This document shows positions 1-57,770 of a DNA stretch of 64,000 nucleotides, one piece after another. The number at the start of each line of letters is the position of its first letter. Position 1 is the first letter of the stretch. The DNA comes from a virus (taxonomy: Duplodnaviria > Heunggongvirae > Uroviricota > Caudoviricetes). Under the pieces are notes generated by a model. That model ran no database searches. It was not told where the DNA came from and saw only the letters and a program-made list of their open reading frames with translations. The stretch lies in the IMG/VR virus record IMGVR_UViG_3300011202_000010, positions 114,589 to 178,588 of that record. One strand, written 5' to 3'. The position numbers were made by a program, and so were the translations under genes.

Positions 1-570
1 ATAAAACTCATCCGAATATTTTTCAATTTCAATATAATTATGTAAGAAATGAACATAATCCTGTATAAGCCAAAGATTAGGGCTAGGCCAAATTTCATTA
101 CAGTCAACTTCTTTTGTGTCTATCTCAATTAAATCCTTCTCTAAAGATTTTATAAATTTTTCATCCGCATGATTATTATTATTTTTTATCACATCAATAA
201 AACTTTTTAATTCTGCTTTCATTTCAGCACGACTTTTTTGATATGTTTTTTTAAATACTGACTTTAAAGAAATATCACGATTCATTTCTGTTGCATCAAC
301 TATACGTGATTTTATATAGGATATGTCATCTTTTATATTATTGGGATTAACTTCCTCTACAAACACATCAATATTACCATATTGATTTTTTATAAAAATA
401 TAACATAAATTTGAATCTTCATTAATGATGTATTTCACCTCTATATCTTTAATTTTTAATAGAGGAAATAAGGCTGAATGAGAAAAAAACTCATCACTTT
501 TATTTATTATTACGCTACGAAAATCGTTTTGTTTATTTATCGCATCATATAGGAAGTTAGTATTTTGCAT
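1..570 (-). CDS. Family-A paralogue, partial (3' end lies beyond the window start); hypothetical
   Basis: ATG at 570 on minus strand, open frame to position 1. N-terminus MQNTNFLYDAINKQNDF...DIEVKYI matches the N-termini of the 2071-3582 and 4317-5810 products (AINKxKxF, EIREVKY). Confidence 0.45.
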   Translation of the reverse strand, partial: MQNTNFLYDAINKQNDFRSVIINKSDEFFSHSALFPLLKIKDIEVKYIINEDSNLCYIFIKNQYGNIDVFVEEVNPNNIKDDISYIKSRIVDATEMNRDISLKSVFKKTYQKSRAEMKAELKSFIDVIKNNNNHADEKFIKSLEKDLIEIDTKEVDCNEIWPSPNLWLIQDYVHFLHNYIEIEKYSDEFY

Positions 571-677
571 TAGGTTAATATTCCTTAAATATTTTCATCA
601 GTATATCATGAAATTTGTATATCAATTAAAACAATAAAAACAGCCTCGTGGGAGACTTTTTTTATTATCTATATTTT

Positions 678-2051
678 TTAAACTTTATTAAATAACAATA
701 AATCTTCACAGAAATCTATTGCATTATTAAGAGCTTTCTCTCGCGTATCTCCTCCATCACAACTAAGTGGTAAAGGTTTTTTATCTTTCAATACGTTAAT
801 AAAATACTCAAGAGCATCTATCCATTCTTTATTTAAAACCCAATCTCTTTTTTGTTTATAGAATGATACTATCAATAACTTCTCTTCCTTGTCTATTACT
901 TCTGGCAGATCTTCAATATAGAGATTAGTTTGATGGTAAACAAATCCTTTTTCTTTTTCATCATAATCAAAACCACCACCATTTCTTAATAAAGCTGCTG
1001 AAATCATCTCAAATTTAGAACATGAGCATAGCGTATTCTGATAACGTAGCTGATAATCAAAAGATTTTATATTTTCAGGATAAACAATTTCATCCATTAA
1101 ACCTTCTTTTTCCAAAATATAAGCAACGGTGCTTAAAATAACTACAAACCCATTCATTAAACCTTTTTTATCTGCATGAACAACTTTACCATTTACACAT
1201 TTTAAAAGCATATTTTCAAATGGTCGCTCTTTCAAAGCACCTGATTTTATTTGTTCTATAAATTTCTTCTTACTCAATTTATTATTGTCTGAATAAATAT
1301 TAACACCATCTTTATCTAAAGTGATCCCATATCTCCAATCAAAATCTTGAATAAATAAAACATCATCTTTTACAAATGTTTCATAATGAAAAAACTGCGA
1401 CTTTGACGTTAAGACGGAAGATACTTTTTCCAATTTAATAGATAATCCCTTTAATGCTTTTTGAATAAAACCTAAATCTTCGGATATAGATTCTTCATAT
1501 AATGGCTCAATATAAAGTTCTTCTCCTGAAAATATACTTAACTCTTTATAAAAATTAGATGTCTTATCAATATAGTTAGAGCAATTAAATAAACATTTTT
1601 TTAATCCATCTTTCATGATAGCTGTTTTATTTTCATCTTCATTTCCATTACATTTATTATCAATTTCTTTTAATAATGCTTTAGGAGAAATTCCAATATT
1701 AAAATCAGCTTCAAAGATAGAAAATATAAAATCATGGTTGGATTCATATGAATCTAGTGGATTATCTAAAGAACCTTTTAATGTTTTAATATTAGGATTC
1801 TTATTAGCTTTCGTAGAGAAAATAGAAACCTTTCTTTTTTCTCTTTCTAAGATGATGATATATTTTTCTGAACCATTTCCTTTAAAGGATTTAATATTTT
1901 CTTCAATATCAATAACTTTATCGCTTGACCATAATTTAATAACGGCTCGACCAAGACTATTGTAATAATCTTCGTTATTTAATACTGTATTACGTAATAA
2001 GCTTTTTTCATTTAACCAAGATTCAATATTCATTTTTACCCTCTGTTCCAT
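678..2051 (-). CDS. Family-A paralogue 1, hypothetical (457 aa; true start may be MNIESW)
   Basis: Long ORF. Shares motifs GGGFDYDEKEKGFVYHQTNLYIEDL and SFDYQLRYQNT with the two neighbouring paralogues. Confidence 0.6.
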   Translation of the reverse strand: MEQRVKMNIESWLNEKSLLRNTVLNNEDYYNSLGRAVIKLWSSDKVIDIEENIKSFKGNGSEKYIIILEREKRKVSIFSTKANKNPNIKTLKGSLDNPLDSYESNHDFIFSIFEADFNIGISPKALLKEIDNKCNGNEDENKTAIMKDGLKKCLFNCSNYIDKTSNFYKELSIFSGEELYIEPLYEESISEDLGFIQKALKGLSIKLEKVSSVLTSKSQFFHYETFVKDDVLFIQDFDWRYGITLDKDGVNIYSDNNKLSKKKFIEQIKSGALKERPFENMLLKCVNGKVVHADKKGLMNGFVVILSTVAYILEKEGLMDEIVYPENIKSFDYQLRYQNTLCSCSKFEMISAALLRNGGGFDYDEKEKGFVYHQTNLYIEDLPEVIDKEEKLLIVSFYKQKRDWVLNKEWIDALEYFINVLKDKKPLPLSCDGGDTREKALNNAIDFCEDLLLFNKV

Positions 2052-2070
2052 GAACCCAATTTATACCATT

Positions 2071-3582
2071 TTATTTTTTAAGAGCTTTTAATTTCTTATT
2101 TAAGTATTTTACCATTAAGGTATATTCATTTTTCTGCCTTTCTTTATCATCATTAAAAGCTTGAGATAATACTTCATTCTCATTAAATATTTTAACTAAT
2201 TTCTCAAAAGCGTTTAACCATTCAGTGTTTAAATATGTTATTTTATCTAACATAAATTTTGCACCAGATAGAGTATAAACTTTGTCATCGAATTTATTAT
2301 CTATTCCCTTCTCTGTCTCCAAATCTTCAATATAAGAAACATCTCTATAACAAATATTACCTGTTTCTTGATTATAACTTTGACCTGCCCCAATTAATAA
2401 AAACGTATGGAATATAAAATCATTTTCTTTTGTTTTATACTTTGTGAAAAAATATTTTCTTTGATAATCATATTCTGTTATATCGGTTTTATAATCAGGA
2501 GATCCAAGACCTTCTTCTACCATAACGTAAGAAGAGCTTTCAACATCTGAAAGAAATACATTCATAGGAAGACCACCATCAGCATACTCAACCTCTCCAT
2601 CTTTAACAACAAGAATAGCGTGTTTGAAAAAATCTACACTGTTATTTTTTAATGCTGCCTTAAATCGTGCTTCTTCTTTACTTTCTTCAATATGAATAGT
2701 TTCAAGATAATATACAGTAAAATTATCTTTATCACCTACAAAGAATAATGTGCAGCCTTGATCGTCTAATACTAATACATCATCTTCCATCCAAACATGA
2801 TTATCTAGATCATTAAAAGTAAATGGTTGCTCTCTTGTAAATTTCTCTTTTTTACAAATAGATTGGAAAAACGCCCTTTTTACTTTTATATCTTCTAAAT
2901 GTTTAGATGCTTCATTTTTTGCTTCAACCATTAACTCTTTGAAGAAATCATCACTATACAATTTCATTCCAGTCATGGTATTTAAAAATTTGTTAAGACA
3001 TACAAGTTTATAAAGATAATAACAGACCTCAACATCTTTTGATGTTTCTTGTTTTTTCATTTCTGTAAAGTTTTCAAGCATTTTTTCTACATCTGCTGAA
3101 TCTTTACCTTCTTGTTCAAGTTTGTTAACGAAAGCCTCCATGAGGTTTATCATTTCATCAGAGAAAAAATTGTGAGTTGTTCTCTGATTGCTGATTACCA
3201 ATGGGAAACCATAAATTTTATTTTCCTTAGCTTTCAGATTACTCAATCCATAACTTAACAAGTATTCTACAGTCTCGTCTTTATCATCTTGTTTATGACG
3301 AACCATATAAGCTTTAATAGCATTCCCTTTATTTAACTTTTCCAGAACATAGATAAAGTCAGTAGTATCAAAATATTTAACTTCTCTGATTTCGTCAGAA
3401 TAAAGATTTGTCATGAGAGATTTGTCAAAAAGAGTATAGAGAGAACTAATCATATCATCTCTGAATGATTTTTCTTTATTGATAGCATTTTGAATAAAAT
3501 GAGTTTCTGACATTATAAGTTCCTTAAAGTTTATATTTTTTCTATTATATCTTAGACCTTTATGAGTAACAACAAAAACCAC
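2071..3582 (-). CDS. Family-A paralogue 2, hypothetical (503 aa)
   Basis: Motifs FNDLDNHVWMEDDVLVLDDQGCTLFFVGDKDNFTVYYLET and EYDYQRKYFFTKY are shared with 4317-5810. Confidence 0.65.
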   Translation of the reverse strand: MVFVVTHKGLRYNRKNINFKELIMSETHFIQNAINKEKSFRDDMISSLYTLFDKSLMTNLYSDEIREVKYFDTTDFIYVLEKLNKGNAIKAYMVRHKQDDKDETVEYLLSYGLSNLKAKENKIYGFPLVISNQRTTHNFFSDEMINLMEAFVNKLEQEGKDSADVEKMLENFTEMKKQETSKDVEVCYYLYKLVCLNKFLNTMTGMKLYSDDFFKELMVEAKNEASKHLEDIKVKRAFFQSICKKEKFTREQPFTFNDLDNHVWMEDDVLVLDDQGCTLFFVGDKDNFTVYYLETIHIEESKEEARFKAALKNNSVDFFKHAILVVKDGEVEYADGGLPMNVFLSDVESSSYVMVEEGLGSPDYKTDITEYDYQRKYFFTKYKTKENDFIFHTFLLIGAGQSYNQETGNICYRDVSYIEDLETEKGIDNKFDDKVYTLSGAKFMLDKITYLNTEWLNAFEKLVKIFNENEVLSQAFNDDKERQKNEYTLMVKYLNKKLKALKK

Positions 3583-3594
3583 CCGAAGGTGGCT

Positions 3595-3765
3595 TTAATC
3601 TTTATACTTCCATTTATCTGGAGTATAGTAAACATAACTTGTACCAGAAAACCAAAGGTTTCCGATTCGATATAATTCAGCTTCTTCTCCATGAGGAGAA
3701 ATCGTTTTTACTGTTACATTCTCTTCTGGTAATTCTTTACGTGGAGATTTCCAGTTATTAGCCAT
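3595..3765 (-). CDS. Small ORF (56 aa, MANNWKSPRKELPEENVTVKT...), hypothetical; absent from the ORF track because it is under 60 aa
   Basis: AAGAGG SD 5 nt upstream of ATG. Hairpin CCACCTTCGGGTGG plus T-run terminator follows. Fills an otherwise empty gap. Confidence 0.35.
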   Translation of the reverse strand: MANNWKSPRKELPEENVTVKTISPHGEEAELYRIGNLWFSGTSYVYYTPDKWKYKD

Positions 3766-3776
3766 ACAACCTCTTT

Positions 3777-4226
3777 TTAGTTTACTTTTTTATTATCTTT
3801 AAAAACGATGCTTGGATATTTTTTAGATTCAAATGAAAAAATAGGTTCAACATATTTAATACCATCTTCGCTGTATGAAGACTGACAAATACCTGAAATA
3901 TTATTTTCATTACAGAAAGAGAACATTTTTTCAATCAACGCTTTGGCAATACCTTGACCTCTTAATGAAGGTTCAACACCAATATTCATCATTGCCCACT
4001 GGCAATCAGAATTCCCACTCCATCCTTTTTCGTAATATGAAAGACAGAGTAGACCAACAGCTTTTTCTCCATCAATGACTGCAAAATACAAGTTTTCACC
4101 ATTAAAGGAAGCATCAAAGTAAGGGACTTTTTCGTTAAAAAGATCATCATATAACTCATAAGCTTCTTTTACATCGCCTTTGAAGGTCATTTTTAATGAT
4201 TTCGAAAAAACTTGTACGTTTAACAT
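3777..4226 (-). CDS. GNAT-family N-acetyltransferase
   Basis: Motif A R-G-Q-G-I-A-K-A-L (Q/RxxGxG/A) in VEPSLRGQGIAKALIEKMF; 149 aa. Sits inside the family-A array. A TTGTGC-N17-TATAAT promoter lies upstream. Confidence 0.7.
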   Translation of the reverse strand: MLNVQVFSKSLKMTFKGDVKEAYELYDDLFNEKVPYFDASFNGENLYFAVIDGEKAVGLLCLSYYEKGWSGNSDCQWAMMNIGVEPSLRGQGIAKALIEKMFSFCNENNISGICQSSYSEDGIKYVEPIFSFESKKYPSIVFKDNKKVN

Positions 4227-4257
4227 ATTTTTAAACTCTCTTGTTTACATTGATGCC

Positions 4258-4286
4258 ATTATAACAAAAACACACATCATGCACAA
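4258..4286 (-). promoter_or_regulatory. Promoter, TTGTGCAT -35, 17-nt spacer, TATAAT -10
   Basis: Minus strand reads TTGTGCATGATGTGTGTTTTTGTTATAATGGCA. Drives 3777-4226. Confidence 0.55.
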
Positions 4287-4316
4287 GTTTAAAAATCCAT
4301 CCTTGGATTGTTTTTC

Positions 4317-5810
4317 TTACATTAGATGGATGTTATTTTCAATCTCTTTCAACTTATCTAATGTTTGCTGTCTAGCAGCGATAGCTTTATCTTTTTCTTC
4401 ATAGAAAACTGAATAATAACTATTTTCTGAAAACATTTTTACAAGGTGTTTAAATGCTTCATACCAATCTTTATTCAATGTTTTTTCAACTTGTTCTATG
4501 CTAAGAAATTCTGGCTGATAAACAATTTTATGTGATGGCTTTTTATTGATACGACTATCTTCTTCTTTTTTTAAAGTTTTTAAATATTCAATATCGCTAT
4601 ATTCAAAACAACCTTTTTCGCTCTTATAATCAGCGCCACCACCTAAAGTTAGGAAGGTGCGCATAAGGAAACTTAACTCATTCATGCCATATTTAGTATA
4701 GAAATAGTCTCTTTGATATTCATAGCTATAAATATCTTTATCGTATTTAACTTCTTCTAACCCTTCATTTCTCATAGCTTCTACTGAATATCGGATGTCT
4801 AACTTAAATACATACATCAATGAACTATCAGAAGCATAAATCACTTTACCATCTTTAACATCAAGCACTGTATGTTCAAAAAATCCATCTTTTTTACCAT
4901 TAAGATAAGTATTTAACTTTATCATTTCATCTTCAACAGAACTATATTCAGTATGTAGGAAATAAACAGTGAAATTATTGTCATCGTTTCCTTCAAAATA
5001 AAAAGTACAGTTTTGATCATTAATAAATAAATTATTATCCTGAACCCATACATGATTATCTAAATCATTAAACTCAAATTTGTTTTCTTTTGTAAACCCA
5101 TGCACATCACACATTTTTTTCAAATAGTTTTTCTTAACGATCCAATCACTCAGATATTCGGCGTTGATTTTAGTTGGTTCGTCAGCTAAAGATAAATAAA
5201 AATCATGAGAATACTCTTTCATATCAACATATTTAGCTAACAATTTGTTATAACTTAAGATAGCATCAATACTTGAACTTGTAAGTAAAGCATTAGCAAG
5301 AAAATCATCACTATTATTTTTTGTATATTCAATAACTTGCTTAACTTTTTTTATCATTTCTTGATTATTTTCTGCTTCAAATCTTTCCAGCATAATATTA
5401 AATTGTTCAAGAATATCTTCTACACTATGATCTTGTTTGAAAAGATTAATAGTCATTACTTTTTCAAAAGAATAAATCTCATCCTTCTTTTCTTTCATAC
5501 ATTGAAGACCATAATAAAGATGCTCAAGATCTTTTTTATCTTTTTCAAAATCATGAATCATTTCCCAATATACATTGAGCACTTTTCCTTTTTTCTCAAA
5601 AATATAAAAATAGTCATTTTCAGGGAGACGAATATATTTTACTTCCCTAATTTCATCTTTATGAAGTGGGAATAATAGATGATCCGATTCAAAAAATTTA
5701 ATCGTTGCTTTTTTTACATCTTCACAGAAATCTTTATTTTTATTAATGGCTGTTTCTGTATAGTTAACTTTGTTCATCAGGACTCCTTTTAGATTATAAA
5801 ATATTGACAC
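4317..5810 (-). CDS. Family-A paralogue 3, hypothetical (497 aa)
   Basis: Motifs FEFNDLDNHVWVQDNNLFINDQNCTFYFEGNDDNNFTVYFLHT and SYEYQRDYFYTKYG. Confidence 0.65.
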   Translation of the reverse strand: MSIFYNLKGVLMNKVNYTETAINKNKDFCEDVKKATIKFFESDHLLFPLHKDEIREVKYIRLPENDYFYIFEKKGKVLNVYWEMIHDFEKDKKDLEHLYYGLQCMKEKKDEIYSFEKVMTINLFKQDHSVEDILEQFNIMLERFEAENNQEMIKKVKQVIEYTKNNSDDFLANALLTSSSIDAILSYNKLLAKYVDMKEYSHDFYLSLADEPTKINAEYLSDWIVKKNYLKKMCDVHGFTKENKFEFNDLDNHVWVQDNNLFINDQNCTFYFEGNDDNNFTVYFLHTEYSSVEDEMIKLNTYLNGKKDGFFEHTVLDVKDGKVIYASDSSLMYVFKLDIRYSVEAMRNEGLEEVKYDKDIYSYEYQRDYFYTKYGMNELSFLMRTFLTLGGGADYKSEKGCFEYSDIEYLKTLKKEEDSRINKKPSHKIVYQPEFLSIEQVEKTLNKDWYEAFKHLVKMFSENSYYSVFYEEKDKAIAARQQTLDKLKEIENNIHLM

Positions 5811-5958
5811 ATTATAACAGTTTTAAAAATGTTTTACTATATTTTTTTGTAACTATAACCGATTGATTTTAAAGATAATTTAAAAGCGTAAAAATTATAT
5901 TTAACTAGCTTTTCTATGCGAAAATATGGTAAAATACTTAAAACAATAGGAGAAAAAG

Positions 5959-6510
5959 ATGATAAATATTAAATTAATTTGCTCTCATTTAATTACGGTT
6001 GGTACTGTAGAAATGTTTGAAAAAGCACCTGATTGGGCAACTCATCTTGTTAGCTTTAATGGAAGTAAATATTTTACAGATACAGCCAATCCCGAACCTC
6101 TTACTCGTTATTCTAAAGCTGCTCATCCTTATAATGAAGGACACTTTAATGAGCATATGTTTAAGTCAAAACATAAATTTATTGTTGAAGCAGCTAGGAT
6201 TAATCAAAAACAAGATTCTTGGGATGGCGAAGGAAGACCTCAAGTTGGTCAAGTTTGTGTTTTAGATTCTGATATCAACGTTGTCATTCTTGGGAAAACT
6301 AAAGATATTTTCAATAGAACAGTTTACACTGTTCAGGATGTAGATAGTCATGAAATTTTCATCGCTCGCTCTGATGAGTTTATGCCTTATTATTCTGATA
6401 GTGATTTAAAAGATCGTGAAGTTCTTATAGGCATTTCTAATATTCTTAGAAAAAGTATTGATGATGAACAAGTTTTGAAAATGTTTAGACTTTTTAAGGA
6501 AAATTCTTGA
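5959..6510 (+). CDS. Hypothetical protein (183 aa)
   Basis: AGGAG SD before the ATG. Bidirectional terminator at 6572-6594. Confidence 0.55.
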   Translation: MINIKLICSHLITVGTVEMFEKAPDWATHLVSFNGSKYFTDTANPEPLTRYSKAAHPYNEGHFNEHMFKSKHKFIVEAARINQKQDSWDGEGRPQVGQVCVLDSDINVVILGKTKDIFNRTVYTVQDVDSHEIFIARSDEFMPYYSDSDLKDREVLIGISNILRKSIDDEQVLKMFRLFKENS

Positions 6511-6571
6511 TGACGGCTCCATGAGCCTGTTACTACTACTATTAATGTTTTCCTTTTATTAAATATAAAAA

Positions 6572-6594
6572 AAGCGGCTGGGCCGCTTTTTTAT
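6572..6594. terminator. Bidirectional intrinsic terminator
   Basis: Hairpin GCGGCTGGGCCGC with an A-run before and a T-run after. Confidence 0.6.
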
Positions 6595-6742
6595 TTAATT
6601 TTTTTACTTATTATTATTTTTTATTTCATCTTCTTTTTTACTTTCTTTTAAAAAATGATCATATAATCCAGAGCAATCTTCATTTCGCTGGGAATGTAAA
6701 CCAATCATTGGAAAATCCTCATTTTTCATTTTTTCATCCTCT

Positions 6743-7498
6743 TTAAAGTGTCGCATTTTGATGTTCCTCTTTTATTGGGTTAGTTTGAGATACTATTTTC
6801 TTAAACCTTTCTAAATCAACCTTATCATTCATTAAGTATCGATTTATATTGAATATATTAGCTGTTTTAACATTAACTGGCGCACTATATACACCAAAAC
6901 CAGCAATATAACTATTTTTCTTTAGAGCATCAATTAACTCTTTATTCTTTTTCCCATATGGATAAACATAAATAGGAACAAATTTTCCAGTGGTTCTTAT
7001 TATTTGAGCTTTACTTGTTTCTACATCATGTTCCGGGAATCCAAGAAAATCTTTAACAAAATGGGTATGCGAATGATTAACAAATGTAAAATTATCTGCT
7101 CCATAAGCTTCTATATCATCTCTTTGTAAATAAGTTCTATTTTTAAATGTCTGATATTCCGTTATTAGAGCAAACATTGCAGGAAAACTGTATTGTTTTA
7201 GTACTTCCATTGCTGCTTTTTGTGTAGCCCAACCATCATCAAATGTAATAACAACACTTTTGGGTGGTAAGCTTTCTCTCTTTTTTATAGCTTCTACTAA
7301 ATCCATAGCAGGAATAACATTATAATTCTTTTCATAAAGATATTTCATTTGCTGCTTAAATAACTCTGGCGTTGTATTCATATCGTTTTTATAATGCGCT
7401 ATCTGATGATACATTAAAACAACTGATACATCCTTAGCTTGAGAATACATTGAAGCACTTGCCAAACATCCAGCCAACATCCATTTTAAAATTTTCAT
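6743..7498 (-). CDS. Secreted polysaccharide deacetylase (NodB/CE4 family)
   Basis: N-terminal signal peptide MKILKWMLAGCLASASMYSQA. NodB motifs VVITFDDGW and NHSHTHF. Confidence 0.75.
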   Translation of the reverse strand: MKILKWMLAGCLASASMYSQAKDVSVVLMYHQIAHYKNDMNTTPELFKQQMKYLYEKNYNVIPAMDLVEAIKKRESLPPKSVVITFDDGWATQKAAMEVLKQYSFPAMFALITEYQTFKNRTYLQRDDIEAYGADNFTFVNHSHTHFVKDFLGFPEHDVETSKAQIIRTTGKFVPIYVYPYGKKNKELIDALKKNSYIAGFGVYSAPVNVKTANIFNINRYLMNDKVDLERFKKIVSQTNPIKEEHQNATL

Positions 7499-7519
7499 TT
7501 TTTTCCTTATATTTAATAA

Positions 7520-8653
7520 TTATTTGTAATAACCAATTCCGTTTTCACGACACCAAATAGAAAGAACATTTGCTTCATGAGGTTTTAAAGATCTGTTAGC
7601 AAAACCTCTAGCTTGAGAAACTGTATGATAGCTACTCACTTCTACTGTTGCTACTCTTTTTTCTTCTGCATAACCCCAAGGAGTATTTGGGCGAACCTTT
7701 AACGACCAAATAGAACAACTGTTATTGATACATTTAGAACGATAACTATAAACACAGTGATGCATTTTATTGCCTTCTTCTGCTAAGGCTTTACCTTGCA
7801 AAATTTGTGTAATTGTCCAAACTACTTCTTTACCTTGCTCATCTTTACGAATATATTCTCCATTAGGAATATCAAAACCTTTCCAAGAATAACCAGAGTG
7901 CTCTTTAATACGACGAAGCTCATAGTGCCAATCTTTAACTCTTTCTAATAACGTTTTAATAGTGAAGCCTTGACCAAAAATTGAAAACTCCCTGTTTTCA
8001 TTCTTTTTACTTTCTAAGAAATCTAAAATATCATCAAGTTGTTCAATACTTTCTGGAACATTAGTAGCGAAGAAACGAGCACAATCACGCCAAAATTCGT
8101 TATTTTTTGGTTTTTTACCAAGCTTAGATCTAGCTATACGGAACGCAATACCATCACCTGCACCAGCACAAAACGCCGTAGCATAATAAATAGCTTCATT
8201 AATGCTTAATGGTTTTATACATGACATAAAAACATGAGTTTCTTTTTTAGTCATAAAGTCTTTTAGATATTCTTTATGTAATGAACCTCCAGTTCCTGCG
8301 CAAATATACCAATCATGATATTCATTTTTTGCTATTTTTTGGGAGTTTTCACCATATCTTCTCTGAGGATTTTCTTGCTTATACCAAGCTTGCTCTAAAA
8401 TTTTTGGAACCGGATATTTTACAAATAGATGCTTAACCATTTCAAGACGTTGCTTGATACGGTCTGATGAACGAGTTTTAAGTTGAAAATCACATACAGG
8501 ACGTATGCATTTTACTAAGATTTCATTAGGGAAATCATGTTCTATAGGAACATTTTCTTTTCCTTTTTGTTTAAGCTTTTTTCCATGATGAGAAAGCATT
8601 GCAAGCTCTTGCTCTGCTTTAATAATTTTTTCAGCTTTTGTTAGCTTAGACAT
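7520..8653 (-). CDS. PcfJ-like protein (tentative), 377 aa
   Basis: C-terminal MHHCVYSY... region recalls PcfJ-like domain proteins of plasmids and phages. Motif recalled from memory, not searched. Confidence 0.35.
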   Translation of the reverse strand: MSKLTKAEKIIKAEQELAMLSHHGKKLKQKGKENVPIEHDFPNEILVKCIRPVCDFQLKTRSSDRIKQRLEMVKHLFVKYPVPKILEQAWYKQENPQRRYGENSQKIAKNEYHDWYICAGTGGSLHKEYLKDFMTKKETHVFMSCIKPLSINEAIYYATAFCAGAGDGIAFRIARSKLGKKPKNNEFWRDCARFFATNVPESIEQLDDILDFLESKKNENREFSIFGQGFTIKTLLERVKDWHYELRRIKEHSGYSWKGFDIPNGEYIRKDEQGKEVVWTITQILQGKALAEEGNKMHHCVYSYRSKCINNSCSIWSLKVRPNTPWGYAEEKRVATVEVSSYHTVSQARGFANRSLKPHEANVLSIWCRENGIGYYK

Positions 8654-9140: not shown

Positions 9141-9878
9141 TTGAAAACTGTCAAACTATATCACGATGATTGCTTAAAAATCATGGAAACTATTCCAACA
9201 GCAAGCGTTGATCTTATTTTATGTGATTTACCCTATGGAACAACTCAAAATGAATGGGACACTATAATTCCTTTTGATTTATTATGGGAACAATATATGC
9301 GTATTAGTAAAGGTGCTATCGTTCTCTTTGCAGCGCAACCTTTCACATCGCTTCTTATAAGCTCCAACTTAAAATACTTTAAATATGATTGGGTATGGGA
9401 AAAAACAAAGGCTACAGGCCATTTAAACGCTAAAAAACAGCCTTTACGAAATAAAGAAGATATTCTTGTATTTTATAAAAAACAACCTACCTATAATCCT
9501 CAAATGAGTAAAGGTGAACCTTATAAAAATAAAACAGGAAAAGATATTAATGGTTCGTCATCCATGACAGCATCTTATGGTAAATATACCAATAAAAGAA
9601 ATGAAAATACGGGTTTTAGATATCCAAAACAAATACTTAAATTTAACACTGTTCAAAGAAATACATTACACCCTACTGAAAAACCCGTTCCATTATTAGA
9701 ATATCTTATTAAAACTTATACTAATAAAGGGGATTTGGTTCTTGATAACTGCATGGGTTCTGGTAGCACTGGTGAAGCGGCTGTTAATCTTGATAGACAT
9801 TTTATTGGGATAGAACAAGAACTTAAGTTTTTTACTAAAGCTTTAATAAGAATAGATAATGCAAGATTAAAAAAATAA
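9141..9878 (+). CDS. N6-adenine DNA methyltransferase, beta-class (DPPY before FxGxG)
   Basis: LILCDLPYG (DPPY motif IV), HPTEKP, and C-terminal DNCMGSGSTGEAA (motif I). TTG start with AAGGAA SD. Confidence 0.8.
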   Translation: MKTVKLYHDDCLKIMETIPTASVDLILCDLPYGTTQNEWDTIIPFDLLWEQYMRISKGAIVLFAAQPFTSLLISSNLKYFKYDWVWEKTKATGHLNAKKQPLRNKEDILVFYKKQPTYNPQMSKGEPYKNKTGKDINGSSSMTASYGKYTNKRNENTGFRYPKQILKFNTVQRNTLHPTEKPVPLLEYLIKTYTNKGDLVLDNCMGSGSTGEAAVNLDRHFIGIEQELKFFTKALIRIDNARLKK

Positions 9879-10359: not shown

Positions 10360-11361
10360 TCAAAACTTAATTCCAAAATGATCATTATAATATTTATCTT
10401 TTTCTTTAGTTTTCGTTCCTTTTAAAACGTCATATTTTTGACTTAATTGAACGATCTGATCAAAAGTGATATAGTTATTGTATGTAGATATACTATTACC
10501 TCCAAAATATGCATCACGATTTAAGTTTTCTAAAGGAATATCAATGATTAATTGGCTGAAACTATGACCAATTTTAAATATTTCTCTTAGTTTTTTAGTT
10601 TCTCCATTTTTATAATATACTTTCATTTGTTGTATTTGTTTATTGTAATTACCAATAATTTCATTTTCGTAAAATCTATTAGCTTGACTACGATTTTTTA
10701 TCTGCCTGTATTCTTTCCATAAGTTTTGATCTATAAAATACGTGTTTGGATCATATCCTTTTTCAGTTAATAACTTTCCTAAATTATTAAAAATAACATC
10801 TCCTGCATATACACTACCAAATTCAGAAGCATTAGAACTTAACATTAATACTGAATTTCTAAACTTATCAAAATCTTTTTTATCATTTGTTTTTATATCT
10901 TCATATAAATCTATTACTGATTTCTTTTTCACGGCATCACTTGCTGATAAACCCCTTGTGTTATAAGCAATACTTTCTAATGTTTTATTCGCATCAACAT
11001 ATCTATATTTCATTTGTAGCATACTATTTAATCCTTTATCTTCACTAAACAAATTATTAAAAGTGATATTTCCATCTTGCATATACATATTTCCAAATAG
11101 TCTTAAATCTTCTTTAAATTGACTATCTGTATAAGGAATCTCATCTATTTTATTTTTAAATGTTTTATAGTTTTCTAATTGACTATAATAACTTGTTTTA
11201 TATTCTATAGTGTTATTGACTTGTACTACTTGGCTTGCTACAACTGAAAGCTCCCATCCAGTAGCAAAAACAAAAGGAGTCATAAAAGCTAATAGGATAC
11301 TTTTTTTCAGTCCTCTATTTATTTTATGATTGGTTTTTATTTTATCTTTAGTTAGTATCAT
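10360..11361 (-). CDS. Family-B paralogue 1, membrane-anchored hypothetical (333 aa)
   Basis: Starts MILTKDK. N-terminal TM helix. C-terminal YYKNGETKKLREIFKIGHSFSQLIID is shared with the next two genes. Confidence 0.6.
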   Translation of the reverse strand: MILTKDKIKTNHKINRGLKKSILLAFMTPFVFATGWELSVVASQVVQVNNTIEYKTSYYSQLENYKTFKNKIDEIPYTDSQFKEDLRLFGNMYMQDGNITFNNLFSEDKGLNSMLQMKYRYVDANKTLESIAYNTRGLSASDAVKKKSVIDLYEDIKTNDKKDFDKFRNSVLMLSSNASEFGSVYAGDVIFNNLGKLLTEKGYDPNTYFIDQNLWKEYRQIKNRSQANRFYENEIIGNYNKQIQQMKVYYKNGETKKLREIFKIGHSFSQLIIDIPLENLNRDAYFGGNSISTYNNYITFDQIVQLSQKYDVLKGTKTKEKDKYYNDHFGIKF

Positions 11362-11385
11362 TATATTTTCTCTTTTATATTTTAT

Positions 11386-12450
11386 TTAAAACCAATAGAA
11401 TAAATTCATATTTTCATAGTATTGTCTATTTTCTTGATTTACTAAGCCTTGCATTTCACTGTATTTTAAAACAAATTCACTTGGATCTATATATCCACTA
11501 ATATAACCAGAAATACCTATATTCATATTATTAAAATATAACCCTTTTCTTTCGAGTGTAGGGGCGTTTTCTATCATTATCTTACTGTAAGCATTACCTA
11601 TTTTAAAAACCTCTCTAAGTTTGTTATAATCTTTATTTTTGTAATAATTTAATAGGGTTTTCATATTATATTCACCTATTCTCTTTTTTTCTTCAAAAAA
11701 CTTTTCTCTTGACTCTTTTGATTTTGCGAATTCGTTTTGCTCGTTATATATTTTTTCTTCTTCGAGGTTTTTACTTATTAAACTTGTTGGAACTGAATAT
11801 AAATCAGCAGAGAAACCTTTGCTTAGCGTGTATTGTCTAATATTATTTAATTCATCTTTTATTAAAGGATAATTTATAAGATTATTATTACTTCCCATCA
11901 TAAATGTAGAAGACAATATTCTATTAAACTTTACTACTCCCCCATTTTTCTCATTTAATAGTTCTTTATATATTCTTGCCTTTTGATACGGGTTATAGCC
12001 ATTATTATCTGAATAATTCATAGAACTTGTTTCTTTTAAAAATTGTGGGAAAAACTCTTGCCGATCTAAATATTTTAATTTCATTTCAGTAAAATTATAA
12101 AACCCTACTTCTTTTGTATTAAATACCTTATCTGAAACGGCATTATTATTAACATATAAATATTCAAATAATGATAAGTCCTTTTTAAAGTCAGCTTCGG
12201 TATAAGGAACAGCTTCCATAGCTTTATAAAAGTTATTATAACTGTTTAAATTGTTATAATATTCTATTTTTTCTTTTACCAAATTAGAGATTTTAACAAC
12301 ATCAGAAGAAAGTATTACTGTATTACCTGCAACAAATAATCCACTAACAATAGCTATGGCAAATAAAGTTTTCTTCATTTTGTTTAATGGGTTTTTATAA
12401 ATCTTTTTTATTTTTGAACTATTTATTGTTTTGTCTTTTGTTAATATCAT
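11386..12450 (-). CDS. Family-B paralogue 2 (354 aa)
   Basis: MILTKDK start, TM helix, YYKNKDYNKLREVFKIGNAYSKIMIENAP. Confidence 0.6.
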   Translation of the reverse strand: MILTKDKTINSSKIKKIYKNPLNKMKKTLFAIAIVSGLFVAGNTVILSSDVVKISNLVKEKIEYYNNLNSYNNFYKAMEAVPYTEADFKKDLSLFEYLYVNNNAVSDKVFNTKEVGFYNFTEMKLKYLDRQEFFPQFLKETSSMNYSDNNGYNPYQKARIYKELLNEKNGGVVKFNRILSSTFMMGSNNNLINYPLIKDELNNIRQYTLSKGFSADLYSVPTSLISKNLEEEKIYNEQNEFAKSKESREKFFEEKKRIGEYNMKTLLNYYKNKDYNKLREVFKIGNAYSKIMIENAPTLERKGLYFNNMNIGISGYISGYIDPSEFVLKYSEMQGLVNQENRQYYENMNLFYWF

Positions 12451-12507
12451 TTAAACCTCTAATATTTTCAGATTTTTTTATAAATTTTTATTTAATATAA
12501 TAATCTC

Positions 12508-13635
12508 TTAGTAATTAAATATTATAAATTCTTTCCCATCATAATATTTGCTTGATTCTTCATTATAAGTTCCTTTTAGCTTTGCCACCTTTTTGGCATC
12601 ATTCATATAATATCTTTTAAAAGATTCTGAACCTTCGTCCTTTTCATCTTCTATTAAACCTATGTCACGCAATCCTGCTTCAACTAATAATGATGGTCTT
12701 ATTCCGTATTCCTCAAACTTACCCTTATTGGAAATGTCATCAACAATAATGTAAGAAAAACCATTTAATACTTTAAATATTTCCCTAAGCTTTTCATAAT
12801 CCCCATTTTTATAATATTCTTTTATTTTCTCTAATGATTCTTTTCTTGCTCCTGTAAAATCATAATCAACCTTATCTAAAGCTTTTTCATAATCACTTTT
12901 ATTTTTATAAGATTTCTCATGACCAATTATTCCTGAAAGAGCTTTCATATATTCTTGGTGTTTATTTTTCCCTAAATATAATAAATCTTCTGAAAATCCA
13001 TTTTCTTTTATTAATTGACGTATATTTTCATATATTTTATCATCAATAAAAACAGCTTTACCAAGAACTCCATTAAGTCTTATTGATGCTGATCTATAAT
13101 CTAACTTTTGTTTTTCATTAACATTATAATTAAGACGAGTAAGATTAAAAAAATTAGAATATTTTTTATTATTATAAGAGTTATAATCTATACTATCATT
13201 TTTGAATCTATTTGCTTCACCTATTATAGGTTTGAATATTTCATCAATATTATGACTTTTTATTGTGGCTCTATCTACTATAAAATTTCTCATCTCATAG
13301 TTACCATATCTTATTTTCATAAGAGGTATATCGTTGTTTCCAAATATATACCCAAAAATTTTTAGGTCCCTTTTAAATTCTTCATCTGTATAAGGAATAC
13401 TGTTTATTTTTTCTTTAAAATTTTCATAGTTATCCAAACCAGAGAAATGTTTCATGCTGGTATCTATGCTGTTGGAAATATTTATACTATTTGTTAATGT
13501 AACAGAGACTTCCCAACTAAATATAGCGCTAAATAAAATAGCTCCACCTATTATACTTTTTTTTATCAAACTTCTTTTTTTTAATGAGGTTTTTTCATTG
13601 TTTTTAAATAGTGTTTTATTTTTAGTGAGTATCAT
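12508..13635 (-). CDS. Family-B paralogue 3 (375 aa)
   Basis: MILTKNK start, TM helix, YYKNGDYEKLREIFKVLNGFSYIIVDD. Confidence 0.6.
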   Translation of the reverse strand: MILTKNKTLFKNNEKTSLKKRSLIKKSIIGGAILFSAIFSWEVSVTLTNSINISNSIDTSMKHFSGLDNYENFKEKINSIPYTDEEFKRDLKIFGYIFGNNDIPLMKIRYGNYEMRNFIVDRATIKSHNIDEIFKPIIGEANRFKNDSIDYNSYNNKKYSNFFNLTRLNYNVNEKQKLDYRSASIRLNGVLGKAVFIDDKIYENIRQLIKENGFSEDLLYLGKNKHQEYMKALSGIIGHEKSYKNKSDYEKALDKVDYDFTGARKESLEKIKEYYKNGDYEKLREIFKVLNGFSYIIVDDISNKGKFEEYGIRPSLLVEAGLRDIGLIEDEKDEGSESFKRYYMNDAKKVAKLKGTYNEESSKYYDGKEFIIFNY

Positions 13636-23254: not shown

Positions 23255-23821
23255 TTATTGGAATGAGAATGTTATTGTACCATTTTCTCCTGATATCTTA
23301 TCACAAACATCAGCAGTATTGGATACGCTATAAGACACGCTAGCCATGTCATTTTTAGCCCAATAAGAACCTACAGCAATAATTTCCATAGTTGGACCAA
23401 CAGCAGTTATTAGTTTAACACAGACATCTTTAGGAACATTATCGTATTGAACGTTTGCGACTACTTTACCAAAAGATGCCCAATTTGTAGCACTTAATGT
23501 TACTTTACCTCCAAAACTATTAACAACACCTGTTACTGTATTTCCACTCTTCTGCAACATGTTATCAGGAAATATATTGGCATTTATTGCTATCGTGTTA
23601 TTTATATTCCCAGCTATTGTTGCTTGTGAGGCGTATAATGCTAATATTCCCGATCTTATTGTTGCTATATTTTTTGCCTCAGCATCCACTGCCTGAGATG
23701 TTCTTACTTTGGGATAAACAATAAAAGCTGCAACGATTAATGCTGCTATTATTCCTAATACCAATAATAATTCCAATAAAGAAAATCCCTTTCCTTTGTT
23801 CATTTTTAAAAATTTACTCAT
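23255..23821 (-). CDS. Type IV pilin / pseudopilin-like protein (prepilin-type N-terminus), about 188 aa
   Basis: N-terminus ...KGKGFSLLELLLVLGIIAALIVAAFIVYPKV has G-1, F+1, E+5 and a hydrophobic helix. Paralogue of 24038-24598 and 56743-57303. Confidence 0.8.
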   Translation of the reverse strand: MSKFLKMNKGKGFSLLELLLVLGIIAALIVAAFIVYPKVRTSQAVDAEAKNIATIRSGILALYASQATIAGNINNTIAINANIFPDNMLQKSGNTVTGVVNSFGGKVTLSATNWASFGKVVANVQYDNVPKDVCVKLITAVGPTMEIIAVGSYWAKNDMASVSYSVSNTADVCDKISGENGTITFSFQ

Positions 23822-24037
23822 TATCTTTCCTTTATTGTAGATTAATTGTTAAATTAGCTTTCTCTTAAGCTATTAATTAACCATAATAAATAAAAAACAG
23901 TTGCGCAATACTGATATAACGAAATTATAATAAAGATTTTTATCATTGAGCCATATTTTATGTAAAAATATCATAAATAAAGGATATATTCTTTTAATAT
24001 CTTATATTTAAATAGAAATATTTCTTTAACATTTATT

Positions 24038-24598
24038 TTATTCAAAATAGAAATTTATTACTGTATTATTGTCTGTTATTTGACCACAAGCTTTTGAAAC
24101 ATTTGCTACACTATAAGGAACTCCAACATTTTCATTTAAAGCCCAATATCCACCGGCTGTTACTAAAAACATATTAGAGCCTACTGCGGTAATTAACTTT
24201 GTACAAAGCTCTGTTGGAACATTATTATATTGTAAAGTAACTACTGTTTTTCCATACCATAAACCTGTAACTAAAATTACGTCCCCTCCAAAACTATTTA
24301 CAACTTTTGAAACAGCGCTTCCATTTTTTATAAGCATGTTGTCTGGAAATATTTGCGCCTGTATTGCTATTGAGTTATTTAATCCTCCTGATATTGTTGC
24401 TTGAGAGGCATATAAAGCTAATATTCCTGATCTTATTGTTGCAATATTCTTTGCCTCGGCATCTATTGATTGAGAGTTTCTTACTTTTGGATAAACAATA
24501 AATGCTCCTACTATAAGAGCTGCTATAATTCCTAGTACTAATAATAACTCTAATAAAGAAAATCCTTTTTCTTTTTTAACTCTATAAAAAATATTCAT
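24038..24598 (-). CDS. Type IV pilin-like protein, 186 aa
   Basis: KEKGFSLLELLLVLGIIAALIVGAFIVYPKV. Shares AEAKNIATIRSGILALYASQATI with 23255-23821. Confidence 0.8.
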   Translation of the reverse strand: MNIFYRVKKEKGFSLLELLLVLGIIAALIVGAFIVYPKVRNSQSIDAEAKNIATIRSGILALYASQATISGGLNNSIAIQAQIFPDNMLIKNGSAVSKVVNSFGGDVILVTGLWYGKTVVTLQYNNVPTELCTKLITAVGSNMFLVTAGGYWALNENVGVPYSVANVSKACGQITDNNTVINFYFE

Positions 24599-30630: not shown

Positions 30631-30782
30631 AGAAATGGTTGTGGTTTCATTGACTATTTACCCGTACACTCTTTCGCCTCTGACAACGAAATACAGCGAA
30701 TGACTCTGTTCTCCCGGCTCATCGTCCAGTGTGCTTTTATTCAGAATTCCCATTCTCGGTAATCAACGAACCACAACCATCT
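30631..30782. ncRNA. Candidate structured RNA (strand undetermined) inside a 300-bp GC-enriched intergenic island
   Basis: A 14/15-bp long-range inverted repeat, GAAATGGTTGTGGTT ... AACCACAACCATCTC, encloses about 120 nt at roughly 45% GC. Flanking sequence is about 30% GC. No credible ORF. Confidence 0.35.
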
Positions 30783-30918
30783 CAAAAATCTGGCCTTGTC
30801 TTTATATATCCTGCTCTTGGGCTAGGAGGCTTTCACCCGACATTGACACCCGTTTAAAACGTTCCAGTCTGTGCCAACAAAACCATTCTAATACATCTTT
30901 CTATCAAATGCAAACACT

Positions 30919-31555: not shown

Positions 31556-32461
31556 ATGAAAATTTTAAAAGATGAGAAAGTTAACTTAAGCGCATCATAC
31601 TTAGGTGTAATTCTTACAGTATTATGTGTCGCTATTGCTGTTTATTCTGGCCTTAATGTTATTTCTGGAACTCAATATAGCGGTTGGAATGAAACAGCAT
31701 CGAATGTCTATTCTTATTGGGCTATTGCTGGCGTTGTGTCTTTTTCTATTGCTTCACTTATATTTTTCTTTAATAGCTTTATTGTTGTTTCACCTAATGA
31801 AAAAGTAGTTGTTAGCTTTTTAGGAAAATATAGAGGAACCATTAATGATGAAGGTGTTTCTTTAGTTAATCCTTTTTTCTCTTTTGAAAAAATAAGCACT
31901 AAAATTTCCACATTTGAAACTCAAGAAACAAAAATCAATGATAGAGAAGGTATTCCTCTTAATGTTTCTATGGTTGTTAACTATCGTGTAGAAATGGCGG
32001 CTCCTTATCATTATAATGCCGAAAAACCTGCTGAAATCATATTAAACACAAGTGAAAGCGAACTAAGAAAAATCGTTACACAACATGTTTTTGATAGTGA
32101 TGATGAAAATGAAGAAACATTAAGCAAAAACTTAGAAAACTTTTCTAAAGAGTTGGTAAATAATATAAATAATAAGATTCATGATATCGGTGTAGTTATT
32201 ATTAGCGCTAACATTACTAAGATATCTTATGCTCCAGAAATCGCTCATTCGATGCTACAGCGTCAACAAGCTAAGAAGGTAGGGGAAAGCCGTAAGGAAA
32301 TAGTTAAAGCTGCTGTATCGACTGTTAGGGACGCTATTAACGATCTTGAAAGAGAAGTTAATGTTAAGTTTGATGAAAAAGATAAAAAAGATTTACTTAA
32401 AAATCTAATGTTGGTTATTGTTTCTGAAAAATCAACAACACCTGTTATTCATCTTGATTAA
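31556..32461 (+). CDS. SPFH / band-7 (stomatin-prohibitin-like) membrane protein
   Basis: AGGAG SD. Two N-terminal TM helices, then SPNEKVVVSFLGKYRGT... a band-7-like core. Confidence 0.6.
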   Translation: MKILKDEKVNLSASYLGVILTVLCVAIAVYSGLNVISGTQYSGWNETASNVYSYWAIAGVVSFSIASLIFFFNSFIVVSPNEKVVVSFLGKYRGTINDEGVSLVNPFFSFEKISTKISTFETQETKINDREGIPLNVSMVVNYRVEMAAPYHYNAEKPAEIILNTSESELRKIVTQHVFDSDDENEETLSKNLENFSKELVNNINNKIHDIGVVIISANITKISYAPEIAHSMLQRQQAKKVGESRKEIVKAAVSTVRDAINDLEREVNVKFDEKDKKDLLKNLMLVIVSEKSTTPVIHLD

Positions 32462-37433: not shown

Positions 37434-38801
37434 TTACAAACCATATTGAGACACTATATTATTACCAACTCGATATATTACTTTTCTATTTTTATTATCA
37501 AGAGCTAATGAAGATCTTTCTCCTGTCGTGCAACTCCATACCACACGAGCCGCAGGAGAGAAAGGAACATTGTAATATAACCTTCTAAACTCATTCATTA
37601 TTGTTGGGAAATTGGCAGAGCCTAATATATGATCATTTAATTCACTATATACTTTTGCATTCGTTAATGTTTTAGGTATTCTAAACATATTTCCAATTCC
37701 AGCAGTAGCATAATCACCTAAATCACAATATGTAGCATGAGAAGAGCAAGCTAATTTACCTGTCCCCCAACTATAACCTGTTTTTAATACATAGTATCTA
37801 TCACTTAATATATTTGACATTTGAATAGCATTTACATGAGGTAAAGTTGTTAGTATCGTAGCTGGCATATTATATTGGTAATGTTCAAAACTACAAGTAC
37901 CTGTTGTAGTTTTATATTCATACCATTCTTCTACACCATCTAGACCACCATCACTTACATAGTACATACTTTTACTGGTCATCACCGCATCTATATTATT
38001 GGCAGCAGATGCTGATATACTGTTTGATATACTAACACTTGTTGATACACTTTTTGAAGCAGAAGCAGAGGCGCTTATACTTGATGAAATGCTTGAACTT
38101 ATAGATTTACTTGTTGAAATACTTTTAGATGCTGATGTTGAAGCACTTACACTCGCACTCACTGAGGCACTAACAGAAGTAGATACTGATGTACTTACAC
38201 TTTTAGATGTTGATACACTCGTAGATACTGAGGTGCTTATGCTCGTCGAAACGCTTGTTGAAACACTCGCTTTATAAACAGTATCTCCTTCATAATAACT
38301 TGAAAATATAATTCCTTCATTTAGCGAATTTTTACAAAATGTAACTATATCTGGAATAGATGAATCGCTATTTATTGTTTTTGAATCAGATTTTCTTATT
38401 ACACTTTTAAATAATGGTCTTGATCTTCCTACAAGGTCTGGACAGGATTTTTCTGTCACTTTATAATAAGTAATGTCATAAAATTCATTTGTTCCATCAT
38501 GATCTGTTATTGTTATTTCACCACCCCAAGGATTAACTAATCTATTCCCTTGCTTCATATTACTAGGCAGTAAATTACCTCCTAGAATCATATTTCTCCC
38601 TTCTTCAACACTTGAATACGATCCTTCTATCTTGTTCATAGCTTGCTGAATATACCCTAAGCCTTTTATTGCTGTACTTACTTTTTGCCTTTCTGACATA
38701 ACGTTAAATACCCAAAAAATAACAGCCATCAATGCTACTATAGCTCCTAAAGAGAGCATCATTTCCATTAAAGAAAATCCTTTACTTTTCCTTTTAAACA
38801 T
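37434..38801 (-). CDS. Large prepilin-type protein (455 aa) with a central Ser-rich dipeptide-repeat region
   Basis: N-terminus [32 protein letters not shown] (G/F/E prepilin motif). About 90 aa of (S-x)n: [27 protein letters not shown]... Globular domains on both sides. Confidence 0.75.
   Translation of the reverse strand: MFKRKSKGFSLMEMMLSLGAIVALMAVIFWVFNVMSERQKVSTAIKGLGYIQQAMNKIEGSYSSVEEGRNMILGGNLLPSNMKQGNRLVNPWGGEITITDHDGTNEFYDITYYKVTEKSCPDLVGRSRPLFKSVIRKSDSKTINSDSSIPDIVTFCKNSLNEGIIFSSYYEGDTVYKASVSTSVSTSISTSVSTSVSTSKSVSTSVSTSVSASVSASVSASTSASKSISTSKSISSSISSSISASASASKSVSTSVSISNSISASAANNIDAVMTSKSMYYVSDGGLDGVEEWYEYKTTTGTCSFEHYQYNMPATILTTLPHVNAIQMSNILSDRYYVLKTGYSWGTGKLACSSHATYCDLGDYATAGIGNMFRIPKTLTNAKVYSELNDHILGSANFPTIMNEFRRLYYNVPFSPAARVVWSCTTGERSSLALDNKNRKVIYRVGNNIVSQYGL
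38000..38270. repeat. Tandem degenerate hexanucleotide repeat encoding the SRR segment of 37434-38801
   Basis: AGT/ACT/AGA-rich repeats on the plus strand. The Leu/Asp/Glu-rich antisense ORF 37999-38277 is an artefact of this region. Confidence 0.7.
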
Positions 38802-38904
38802 AAACTAAAAACTCCTAAATAATTTTACAGAACATTCTTAATTACAATAGCCTGTTATTTTTAAAAGATCAAATAAATACAAATAATAATTATTATCATT
38901 TAAA

Positions 38905-38930
38905 AAAGGCTACCGGAGTAGCCTTTGATT
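38905..38930 (-). terminator. Intrinsic terminator
   Basis: GGCTACCGGAGTAGCC hairpin flanked by A and T runs. Confidence 0.55.
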
Positions 38931-38946
38931 CATTATAATTTTTAAC

Positions 38947-56381: not shown

Positions 56382-56457
56382 TGGTGCATTCGGTAGGATT
56401 TGAACCTACGACACCCGGATCTTCAATCCAGTGCTCTACCAACTGAGCTACAAATGC
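56382..56457 (-). tRNA. tRNA-Phe (anticodon GAA), 76 nt with encoded CCA
   Basis: Cloverleaf read by hand: acceptor GCATTTG/CGAATGC, anticodon stem CTGGA/TCCGG with loop TTGAAGA, T-arm GTAGGTTCAAATCCTAC. Confidence 0.8.
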
Positions 56458-56667: not shown

Positions 56668-56742
56668 AAAATATCTTATAACATCTTCTTTGTTAACGAG
56701 ATAAAGATAATAACAATATTTTTTATGATAAACAACTCTTTT

Positions 56743-57766: not shown

Positions 57767-57770
57767 TTTT

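Follow-up and report, generated by a model that had tools for sequence, protein, structure and literature searches.

We analysed a window of 64,000 nucleotides from a Caudoviricetes virus record (IMGVR_UViG_3300011202_000010, positions 114,589 to 178,588). Positions 1–5810 of the window carry a tandem array of four paralogous genes, named A, B, C and D, together with a GNAT acetyltransferase gene and a gene for a protein of 56 amino acids (aa). All six are co-directional on the minus strand, in the order A, GNAT, 56-aa gene, B, C and D. The array is an ordered set of three conserved subtypes (the full-length AB type, the C type and the short D type) and not a swarm of fast-diverging copies. 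We read it tentatively, at somewhat less than an even chance, as a heterotypic tandem array of cooperating paralogous subunits, which would form an accessory module in a variable region with mobile-element-type genes. The descriptive part of this reading is much firmer than the functional part.

The initial annotation of the window had described four or more diverged paralogues of moderate identity, all in the same direction and the first truncated by the window edge. Pairwise BLASTP and a hidden Markov model (HMM) of the family bear out the paralogy. A and B are 34% identical over 481 aa (E 1e-70). B and C share 25% identity over 318 aa (E 1e-13), and A and C share 25% over the C-terminal 183 aa only (E 4e-10). 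The 190-aa fragment of D is 27% identical to A (E 5e-5 to 1e-4). It is also 99.5% identical to the first 190 aa of a complete 338-aa gene in the related locus L002 (12944–13960). All four genes lie on the minus strand. The number of copies is exactly four. The family HMM found no other member in the 64-kb window, and in the closest relatives, L002 and L016, the array stops with the complete 338-aa D, which is followed by a cation-efflux gene.

In the full-length form, represented by A and B, alpha/beta domains lie at the N- and C-termini, with a variable helical linker and then a beta domain between them. The beta domain bears F.FNDLDNHVW...DQN, and the C-terminal domain bears Y.YQ..Y, LGGG.Y and LN.DW. 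Across the family, the conserved core consists of F.FNDLDNHVW...DQN, NGKV.Y, Y..DI.SY.YQ..Y, LGGGF.YD and LN.DW, with Y350 and W432 (B numbering) as invariant residues. The N- and C-terminal motifs that had been quoted as common to the copies are indeed held by A and B. D holds them in part (AINK..DF, IEVKY), and C has only the C-terminal ones. C keeps every C-terminal motif (SFDYQLRY, GGGFDYD, LNKEW). Its N-terminus is diverged, and the copy alignment shows a 10-residue deletion that takes out the NDLDNH loop, which is why FNDLDNHVW is missing. D keeps FND(A/G)DN(Y/H)(V/I)W...DDQNC and the NG.V.YAD hairpin but, ending at ~residue 340, lacks the C-terminal domain. The helical linker, B residues 100–160, is the most variable and the least confidently modelled part. 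No internal repeat was found by hhalign between domains. The family proteins are acidic in net charge and contain no hydrophobic segment (Kyte-Doolittle 19-residue maximum <1.4), so they appear to be soluble and cytoplasmic.

The array was compared with related loci in the same clade and in a sister clade of 38–40% GC (L011, L014, L018 and L019), whose neighbourhood is the same as that of the window. In L011, the order is a PcfJ-domain gene (66% identical to the window clade), a polysaccharide deacetylase gene (62%), a homologue of a 183-aa gene named orf183 (33%), the 56-aa gene (66%), one AB-type copy, a C-type copy, a 342-aa D-type copy and then the cation-efflux gene (79% identical to the L001 copy; beyond the end of the window). 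The AB-C-D order, with the 56-aa gene ahead of it, is thus kept in two clades about 10 GC points apart. The GNAT gene is not present in L011, which is otherwise syntenic. It is therefore not a fixed component, and its proposed role as a partner toxin or modifier is not supported. From this distribution, the AB-C-D triad with the 56-aa gene ahead of it is ancestral, and the low-GC clade has added the GNAT gene and a second full-length copy.

Copy-number variation between relatives, which had been suggested as a check, is present. L001 has three copies (A, B and C, followed by the cation-efflux gene, with D missing). The window, L002 and L016 have four copies (A, B, C and D). L003 has five, with an extra 298-aa truncated copy, named x, between B and C. 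In L004, D is reduced to a 121-aa remnant. C orthologues are intact in every locus, and D is 338–342 aa in L002, L003, L011 and L018. Past the cation-efflux gene and one opposite-strand open reading frame (ORF), L001 (14662–16238) and L003 (16526–18200) carry an adjacent pair of paralogues of 252 and 254 aa, both ending in KVW and both without a Pfam match.

Part of the L003 array resembles the sister clade. In identity matrices, x, C and D from L003 and L004 show 79–87% identity to AB, C and D of the sister clade, compared with only 40–46% to A, C and D of the window. L003 11659–16272 has 79–89% nucleotide identity to L011, whereas the PcfJ-domain and deacetylase genes have ~69–70%. The GC content of x, C and D in L003 is 34–37.5%, and that of A and B is 26–27%. 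Synonymous divergence (dS) is 2.5 in the neighbouring cation-efflux gene but 0.5–1.1 in x, C and D. The left junction carries a partial second copy of the 56-aa gene. The simplest reading of these sequences is that the whole cassette was replaced in L003 by recombination with DNA of the higher-GC clade, with putative crossovers near the 56-aa gene and the cation-efflux gene. The array changes by duplication (A and GNAT, inserted in the low-GC clade), loss (D in L001), truncation (x in L003) and recombinational replacement of the whole cassette between clades. As an observation in its own right, the cassette of a truncated AB copy, C and D (L003 11553–16272, L011 9908–15081) has moved between clades of ~29% and ~39% GC.

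More distant lineages carry one copy of the family within ~8 kb, and in four of them it lies beside DUF285 gene arrays. Members of ~580 aa occur in L024 (7380–9125), L026 (7389–9125) and L027 (7392–9125). Only their first ~330 residues match the family. The C-terminal 250 aa differ and have no Pfam match, and a conserved 251-aa gene comes next in all three.

The ratio of nonsynonymous to synonymous substitution rates (dN/dS) was calculated gene-wide between loci by the Nei-Gojobori method. The values are 0.11–0.16 for A, 0.11–0.31 for B, 0.10–0.28 for C, 0.11–0.21 for D and 0.20 for x. Those of the array genes are comparable to those of flanking genes. This indicates that every subtype is under purifying selection across the gene. 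The initial annotation had considered such an array typical of diversifying selection. With values of 0.10–0.31 for every subtype, where diversifying selection calls for a value above 1, that expectation was not borne out. Localised positive selection at single sites may persist beneath these gene-wide values. Between the window and L003, identity is only 45–49% for C and D, compared with 84–92% for the flanking genes. We attribute this to an imported allele and not to fast evolution in place. Since the three subtypes keep their order across two clades, the divergence between copies is old and not recent. The length of D, 338–342 aa in both clades, together with its dN/dS of 0.14–0.21, argues that D is not a pseudogene.

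No match above the curated cutoff was found for A–D in Pfam, NCBIfam or PHROGs. Fifty-eight diverse family members had no match in Pfam, and neither did the longer, possibly fused forms (515–617 aa), which were searched for a Rosetta-stone domain fusion. A profile search of PDB sequences gave nothing below E 0.19. The initial annotation could match the motifs to no familiar family, and none was found for the array proteins in Pfam, NCBIfam, PHROGs, PADLOC or PDB sequences. The AlphaFold2 model of B has a mean predicted local distance difference test score of 74 and a predicted template modelling (TM) score of 0.69, with residues 170–480 modelled confidently. Foldseek of the whole model against PDB found nothing below E 0.2. 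The top match was a SAVED domain (E 0.2, probability 0.12, TM 0.10), and these values do not place B in that fold. The beta-sheet-plus-helix folds listed nearest were FcpB (6pwb), the cryptic polo box (4nkb, 5lhx) and the Cap4 SAVED domain (6vm6).

Against BFVD, Foldseek gave one significant match, A0A345MMJ9 (E 7.5e-21, probability 1.00, whole-length TM 0.64/0.69, 20% identity). This UniProt entry is an unnamed viral protein of 445 aa that is alike in whole-length fold and carries no functional annotation. Judging from the model, it is probably a true family member. A tblastn search of the GenBank phage collection with B, C, P0012 and P0026 did not locate it. The Foldseek comparison proposed for an AlphaFold model therefore yielded no convincing PDB fold and a single unnamed viral protein. 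By the libraries and the whole-model comparisons with PDB and BFVD, the family appears to be previously undescribed and lineage-restricted. The fold comparison was made with the whole B model only, and a remote kinship to a known fold may still exist. If a domain-wise fold search placed the family in a known superfamily, the array would be an ordinary lineage-specific expansion. Should no known fold prove to be related, the family would be a new addition to the known families of bacterial proteins.

How the subtypes might work can be proposed in outline. AB would be the complete subunit, and C and D would act with AB in one hetero-oligomeric module. The subtypes most likely act together because the conserved features are divided between C and D in complementary halves and because x, C and D appear to have been imported as one cassette. 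The GNAT protein would be a lineage-specific add-on, co-transcribed with copy A. The module would be accessory cargo of a variable region. Evidence of the mobile-element type includes a methyltransferase, a PcfJ domain, a NikA/CopG-like gene, the resolvase in L011 and the IMG/VR provirus call in the sister clade. With neighbours of this type, a role in conflict between genomes, in the interplay with phages or mobile elements, would be the most likely of several weak options, and a housekeeping role would be less likely. Given the same context, an immunity or anti-defence role may still apply. We consider a far more specific proposal unlikely. It would be a new multi-subunit accessory module in which a complete subunit, two complementary "half-degenerate" paralogues and a 56-aa partner are cassette-exchanged among uncultured low-GC bacteria. 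Such a module would act in phage or mobile-element conflict through an undescribed fold and chemistry, with the invariant NDxDN-H/DQN, Y.YQ..Y and GGG.Y as the active or ligand-binding site.

Several points weigh against cooperating subunits in an accessory module. Hetero-oligomerisation is inferred from conserved co-occurrence and complementary domain loss. L001 has no D, and most of the distant lineages carry one full-length copy; AB can therefore presumably function by itself, with no universal need for C and D. PADLOC identified no known defence or anti-defence gene as a direct partner, and neither biochemistry nor structure gives a clue to the activity. Promoter-like sites are not enriched in the region, with 30 found compared with 42.6 expected from shuffled sequence. 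The cation-efflux flank and the long-range synteny look chromosomal, unlike a recently mobile element. The organisation is unusual in that three complementary paralogue types stay together, move between lineages as one unit and are under purifying selection, and this pattern leads to a testable co-assembly hypothesis.

The array could instead consist of rapidly diversifying immunity, anti-defence or host-range genes with copy-specific specificities and the GNAT protein as their partner toxin or modifier. Copy number does vary, the cassette has been replaced between strains, and the helical linker is the most variable part of the protein. The steep drop in C and D identity in L003 between well-conserved flanks, and the nearby methyltransferase, PcfJ and NikA-like genes, would also suit such an array. 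However, dN/dS is low throughout, the drop in L003 is that of an imported allele, and the subtypes appear ancient and ordered. The GNAT gene is missing from the sister clade and PADLOC has no match. We regard this explanation as unlikely. Another explanation that the initial annotation raised is that the array holds the immunity genes of a polymorphic toxin system. Loci of this kind typically contain diverged paralogues in tandem. The neighbours of this array are GNAT, the 56-aa gene, orf183, the polysaccharide deacetylase and the PcfJ-domain protein, and none is a toxin. Pfam and NCBIfam detected no toxin or secretion-associated domain within ~10 kb, and neither A–D nor the 58 diverse members match an Imm or SUKH family in Pfam, which makes this explanation very improbable.

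Effector families often expand by duplication, and the proteins could be effectors secreted by a host-associated bacterium, or factors with which it interacts with its host. The genome is of low GC and rich in genes without known relatives, and a scan of 51 ORFs matched only 14 Pfam families. Also encoded are an ankyrin-repeat protein and several other tandem paralogue sets, the Band-7 gene is truncated in other strains, and distant members of the family neighbour DUF285 arrays in four lineages. Several features speak against this reading. Hydropathy gives neither a Sec signal peptide nor a transmembrane segment, the C termini are not conserved, and there is no eukaryote-like domain and no adjacent secretion-system gene. 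An effector role is thus quite unlikely. Redundant or decaying duplicates, with one functional copy and with D and x as pseudogene remnants, would account for the truncation of D and x relative to A and B, for the missing D in L001 and for the remnant in L004. Under decay, we would not expect D to keep its length across clades or D and x to show such low dN/dS. Short forms of ~330–370 aa recur as separate representatives across the family, and C orthologues are intact in every locus. Decay is accordingly an improbable account of the array.

The family is rare. A word-index search of 5.8 billion proteins gave 8 distinct clusters, mostly orthologues from one clade, of which at least one (P0008, 265 aa) is unlike the family by composition and N-terminus. 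An exhaustive HMM search of 1.84 billion representatives gave 102 proteins at E ≤1e-3, with 44 below 1e-30. Most of these are 430–500 aa long, and a recurrent class of ~330–370 aa aligns only to profile positions 1–335. Nearly all members have an amino-acid composition typical of low-GC genomes (uncultured bacteria). GTDB species representatives contained no match to the family by the A2 profile or by a DNA pattern for [FY]NDLDNH[VILM]W. Megablast of window positions 1–8000 and tblastn of B found nothing in the GenBank phage and PLSDB plasmid collections. C, P0012 and P0026 had no tblastn match in the phage collection, and the PcfJ-domain protein had none in the plasmid collection.

Scans of IMG/VR for the family returned a single contig, IMGVR_UViG_3300031087_000527, which holds L011, L014 and L030. 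By coordinates, this record corresponds to the 259 kb at the end of an 866-kb contig from a metagenome; the contig is bacterial, and the record is a provirus call within it. For a provirus, the called region (L011, L014 and L030; Ga0308161_1000008 = L019) is very large, and genes without known relatives may have led to a false positive. Hundreds of contigs in Logan and ENA, up to 1.37 Mb long, contain exact copies of window proteins. The NCBI proteins EPP7234111.1, EPP7234119.1, EPP7234122.1 and EPP7234183.1 share 90%-identity clusters with four window proteins. They are labelled "Shigella flexneri" (982-kb contig), their DNA is 28% GC, and the label is probably a contaminant or a mislabelling. 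A further label on copies of window proteins, "Enterobacter hormaechei", most likely reflects contamination or mis-binning. The same most likely applies to "Serratia sp. Se-RSBMAAmG", the label of the sister clade, whose source is a metagenome of an enrichment culture (PMC10665472). Identifying the carrier organism, a low-GC bacterium that is in hundreds of public sequencing runs and outside the GTDB representatives, could outweigh the array itself.

The features of the array region are listed in Table 1. The acetyltransferase that had been recognised within the array is a true GNAT protein by Pfam. It scores 33.9 bits against PF00583 (cutoff 20.7, E 4e-8) and 28.5 bits against PF13508 (cutoff 27), and only weakly matches the RimI model (24.7 bits, cutoff 86.4). 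Its dN/dS is 0.12–0.13. The 56-aa small ORF (sORF) had also been proposed, and two results show that it is a real gene. Its dN/dS is 0.05–0.06 compared with L002–L004 (0.24 with L001, the least diverged comparison), and a homologue of 66–70% identity occurs in a clade of 38–40% GC, with the gene upstream of the array in L011 and L017. The gene has no PHROG or NCBIfam match and no Pfam match at E ≤0.1, DUF551 included. We take its product to resemble DUF551-like small phage proteins (W..ELPE..V.V....G), a likeness that the Pfam profile did not confirm.

Table 1. Genes and expression signals in the array region (window coordinates).
Feature	Coordinates	Strand	Description
Copy A	4317..5777	-	Full-length subtype, 486 aa from ATG 5777; ORF reaches GTG 5810; family HMM E 1e-131
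Copy B	2071..3513	-	Full-length subtype, 480 aa from ATG 3513; ORF reaches GTG 3582; HMM E 4e-121
Copy C	678..2033	-	C subtype, 451 aa; FNDLDNHVW loop missing, C-terminal domain motifs kept; HMM E 6e-86
Copy D	1..570	-	Short subtype; first 190 codons of a 338-aa gene, the rest cut by the window edge; HMM E 4e-13
GNAT acetyltransferase	3777..4226	-	149 aa; same predicted transcription unit as A; Pfam PF00583 (Acetyltransf_1)
56-aa gene (sORF)	3595..3765	-	Between A and B; conserved, low dN/dS
Promoter-like site before A	5894..5922	-	TTCGCA-17-TATAAT, 10/12 consensus matches; consensus match only
Promoter-like site before B	3544..3572	-	TTGTTA-17-TATAAT, 10/12 consensus matches
Intrinsic-terminator-like hairpin	3575..3596	-	Directly 3' of the 56-aa gene stop; 9-bp stem and T run
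Terminator-like hairpin after C	642..657	-	Terminator-like site from consensus scan

A purine run resembling a Shine-Dalgarno (SD) sequence lies 6–12 nt 5' of the ATG of each array gene, with AAGGAG before A. Terminator-like sites are enriched in the region, with 7 found compared with 1.5 expected from shuffled sequence. The arrangement of signals suggests three predicted transcription units, namely A-GNAT-sORF, B-C and D. The stop codons of the window ORFs are TAA (59), TGA (7) and TAG (2). A giant virus or an alternative genetic code was rejected, as the SD sites, intrinsic terminators and stop-codon usage are those of standard bacterial translation.

Upstream of A lie orf183 on the opposite strand, the polysaccharide deacetylase gene, whose product has a signal-peptide-like sequence, the PcfJ-domain gene and a 93-aa Cys-rich ORF. 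Also upstream are an orphan or type II DNA methyltransferase gene and the NikA/CopG-like gene. In L011, a MerR-resolvase gene lies downstream. PADLOC 2.0 had no match for A–D, GNAT, the sORF, orf183 or PcfJ, and only the neighbouring methyltransferase (9141–9878) matched (MTase_II/oMTase models). A known defence system was thus not found among the array genes.

The remainder of the window consists mostly of genes without known relatives, together with an MCP-domain gene, the ankyrin-repeat gene, an M49 peptidase gene and a GmrSD_N gene. A second tandem array lies at 10360–13635 (minus strand). Its three diverged paralogues (333, 354 and 375 aa; 24–27% identity) have no Pfam match. For one of them, the window and L003/L004 share just 32% identity, and variation between strains therefore extends to this second array. 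Eight pilin-like paralogues with a prepilin N-terminal methylation motif are spread over 23255–24598, 37434–42238, 47241–48691 and 56743–57303. PilS and Bundlin are among the Pfam matches of the window ORFs. Three of the pilin-like proteins are 455–552 aa long, and two share a 177-aa segment of 86% identity. An adjacent pair of GtrII-type glucosyltransferase genes, 51% identical to each other, is located at 43821–47043 (plus strand). The Band-7/SPFH gene at 31556–32461 (plus strand) encodes 301 aa here and appears as 120–240-aa fragments in further strains of the cluster, so pseudogenisation seems to be under way in the lineage. Beyond the window, only small unknown ORFs were encountered.

Seven tRNA genes lie at 56382–60814 (minus strand): Phe, Pro-GGG, Arg-CCT, two with anticodon CAT, Leu-TAA and one with anticodon CTA. 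The last (60226–60300) is of the amber-suppressor type, and TAG is still the stop in 2 of 68 ORFs. A 3' CCA is encoded in all except tRNA-Pro(GGG), and the surrounding small ORFs look phage-like. Compared with E. coli tRNA sequences, the tRNAs show ~75% identity. At 30766–30878 (minus strand), the window matches the Rfam model sraL (RF01408) with 46.7 bits compared with a gathering score of 39. The sraL RNA is an Hfq-binding small RNA of enterobacteria. The matching element is 47% GC within DNA of ~28% GC, and the alignment is good in its central hairpins. True homology would offer a hint to the taxon; otherwise the element is a structured one that arose by convergence.

The ordered complementary triad and the cassette swap between clades are noteworthy, and nothing yet points to a new mechanism. 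Compared with SUKH, Imm and TipC immunity arrays, the family has no neighbouring toxin and no Imm or SUKH domain, is far larger and is under apparent purifying selection. Typical immunity proteins are much smaller, and at 340–490 aa the family proteins are three to four times larger. The DUF285 arrays that flank distant family members can also be compared. Like the array described here, they consist of co-directional diverged paralogues that vary in copy number, and both are found in genomes where GC is low and genes without known relatives are abundant. The two have no sequence similarity. In contrast to the DUF285 arrays, the family looks cytoplasmic and is built as an ordered set of three subtypes rather than a run of equivalent repeats.

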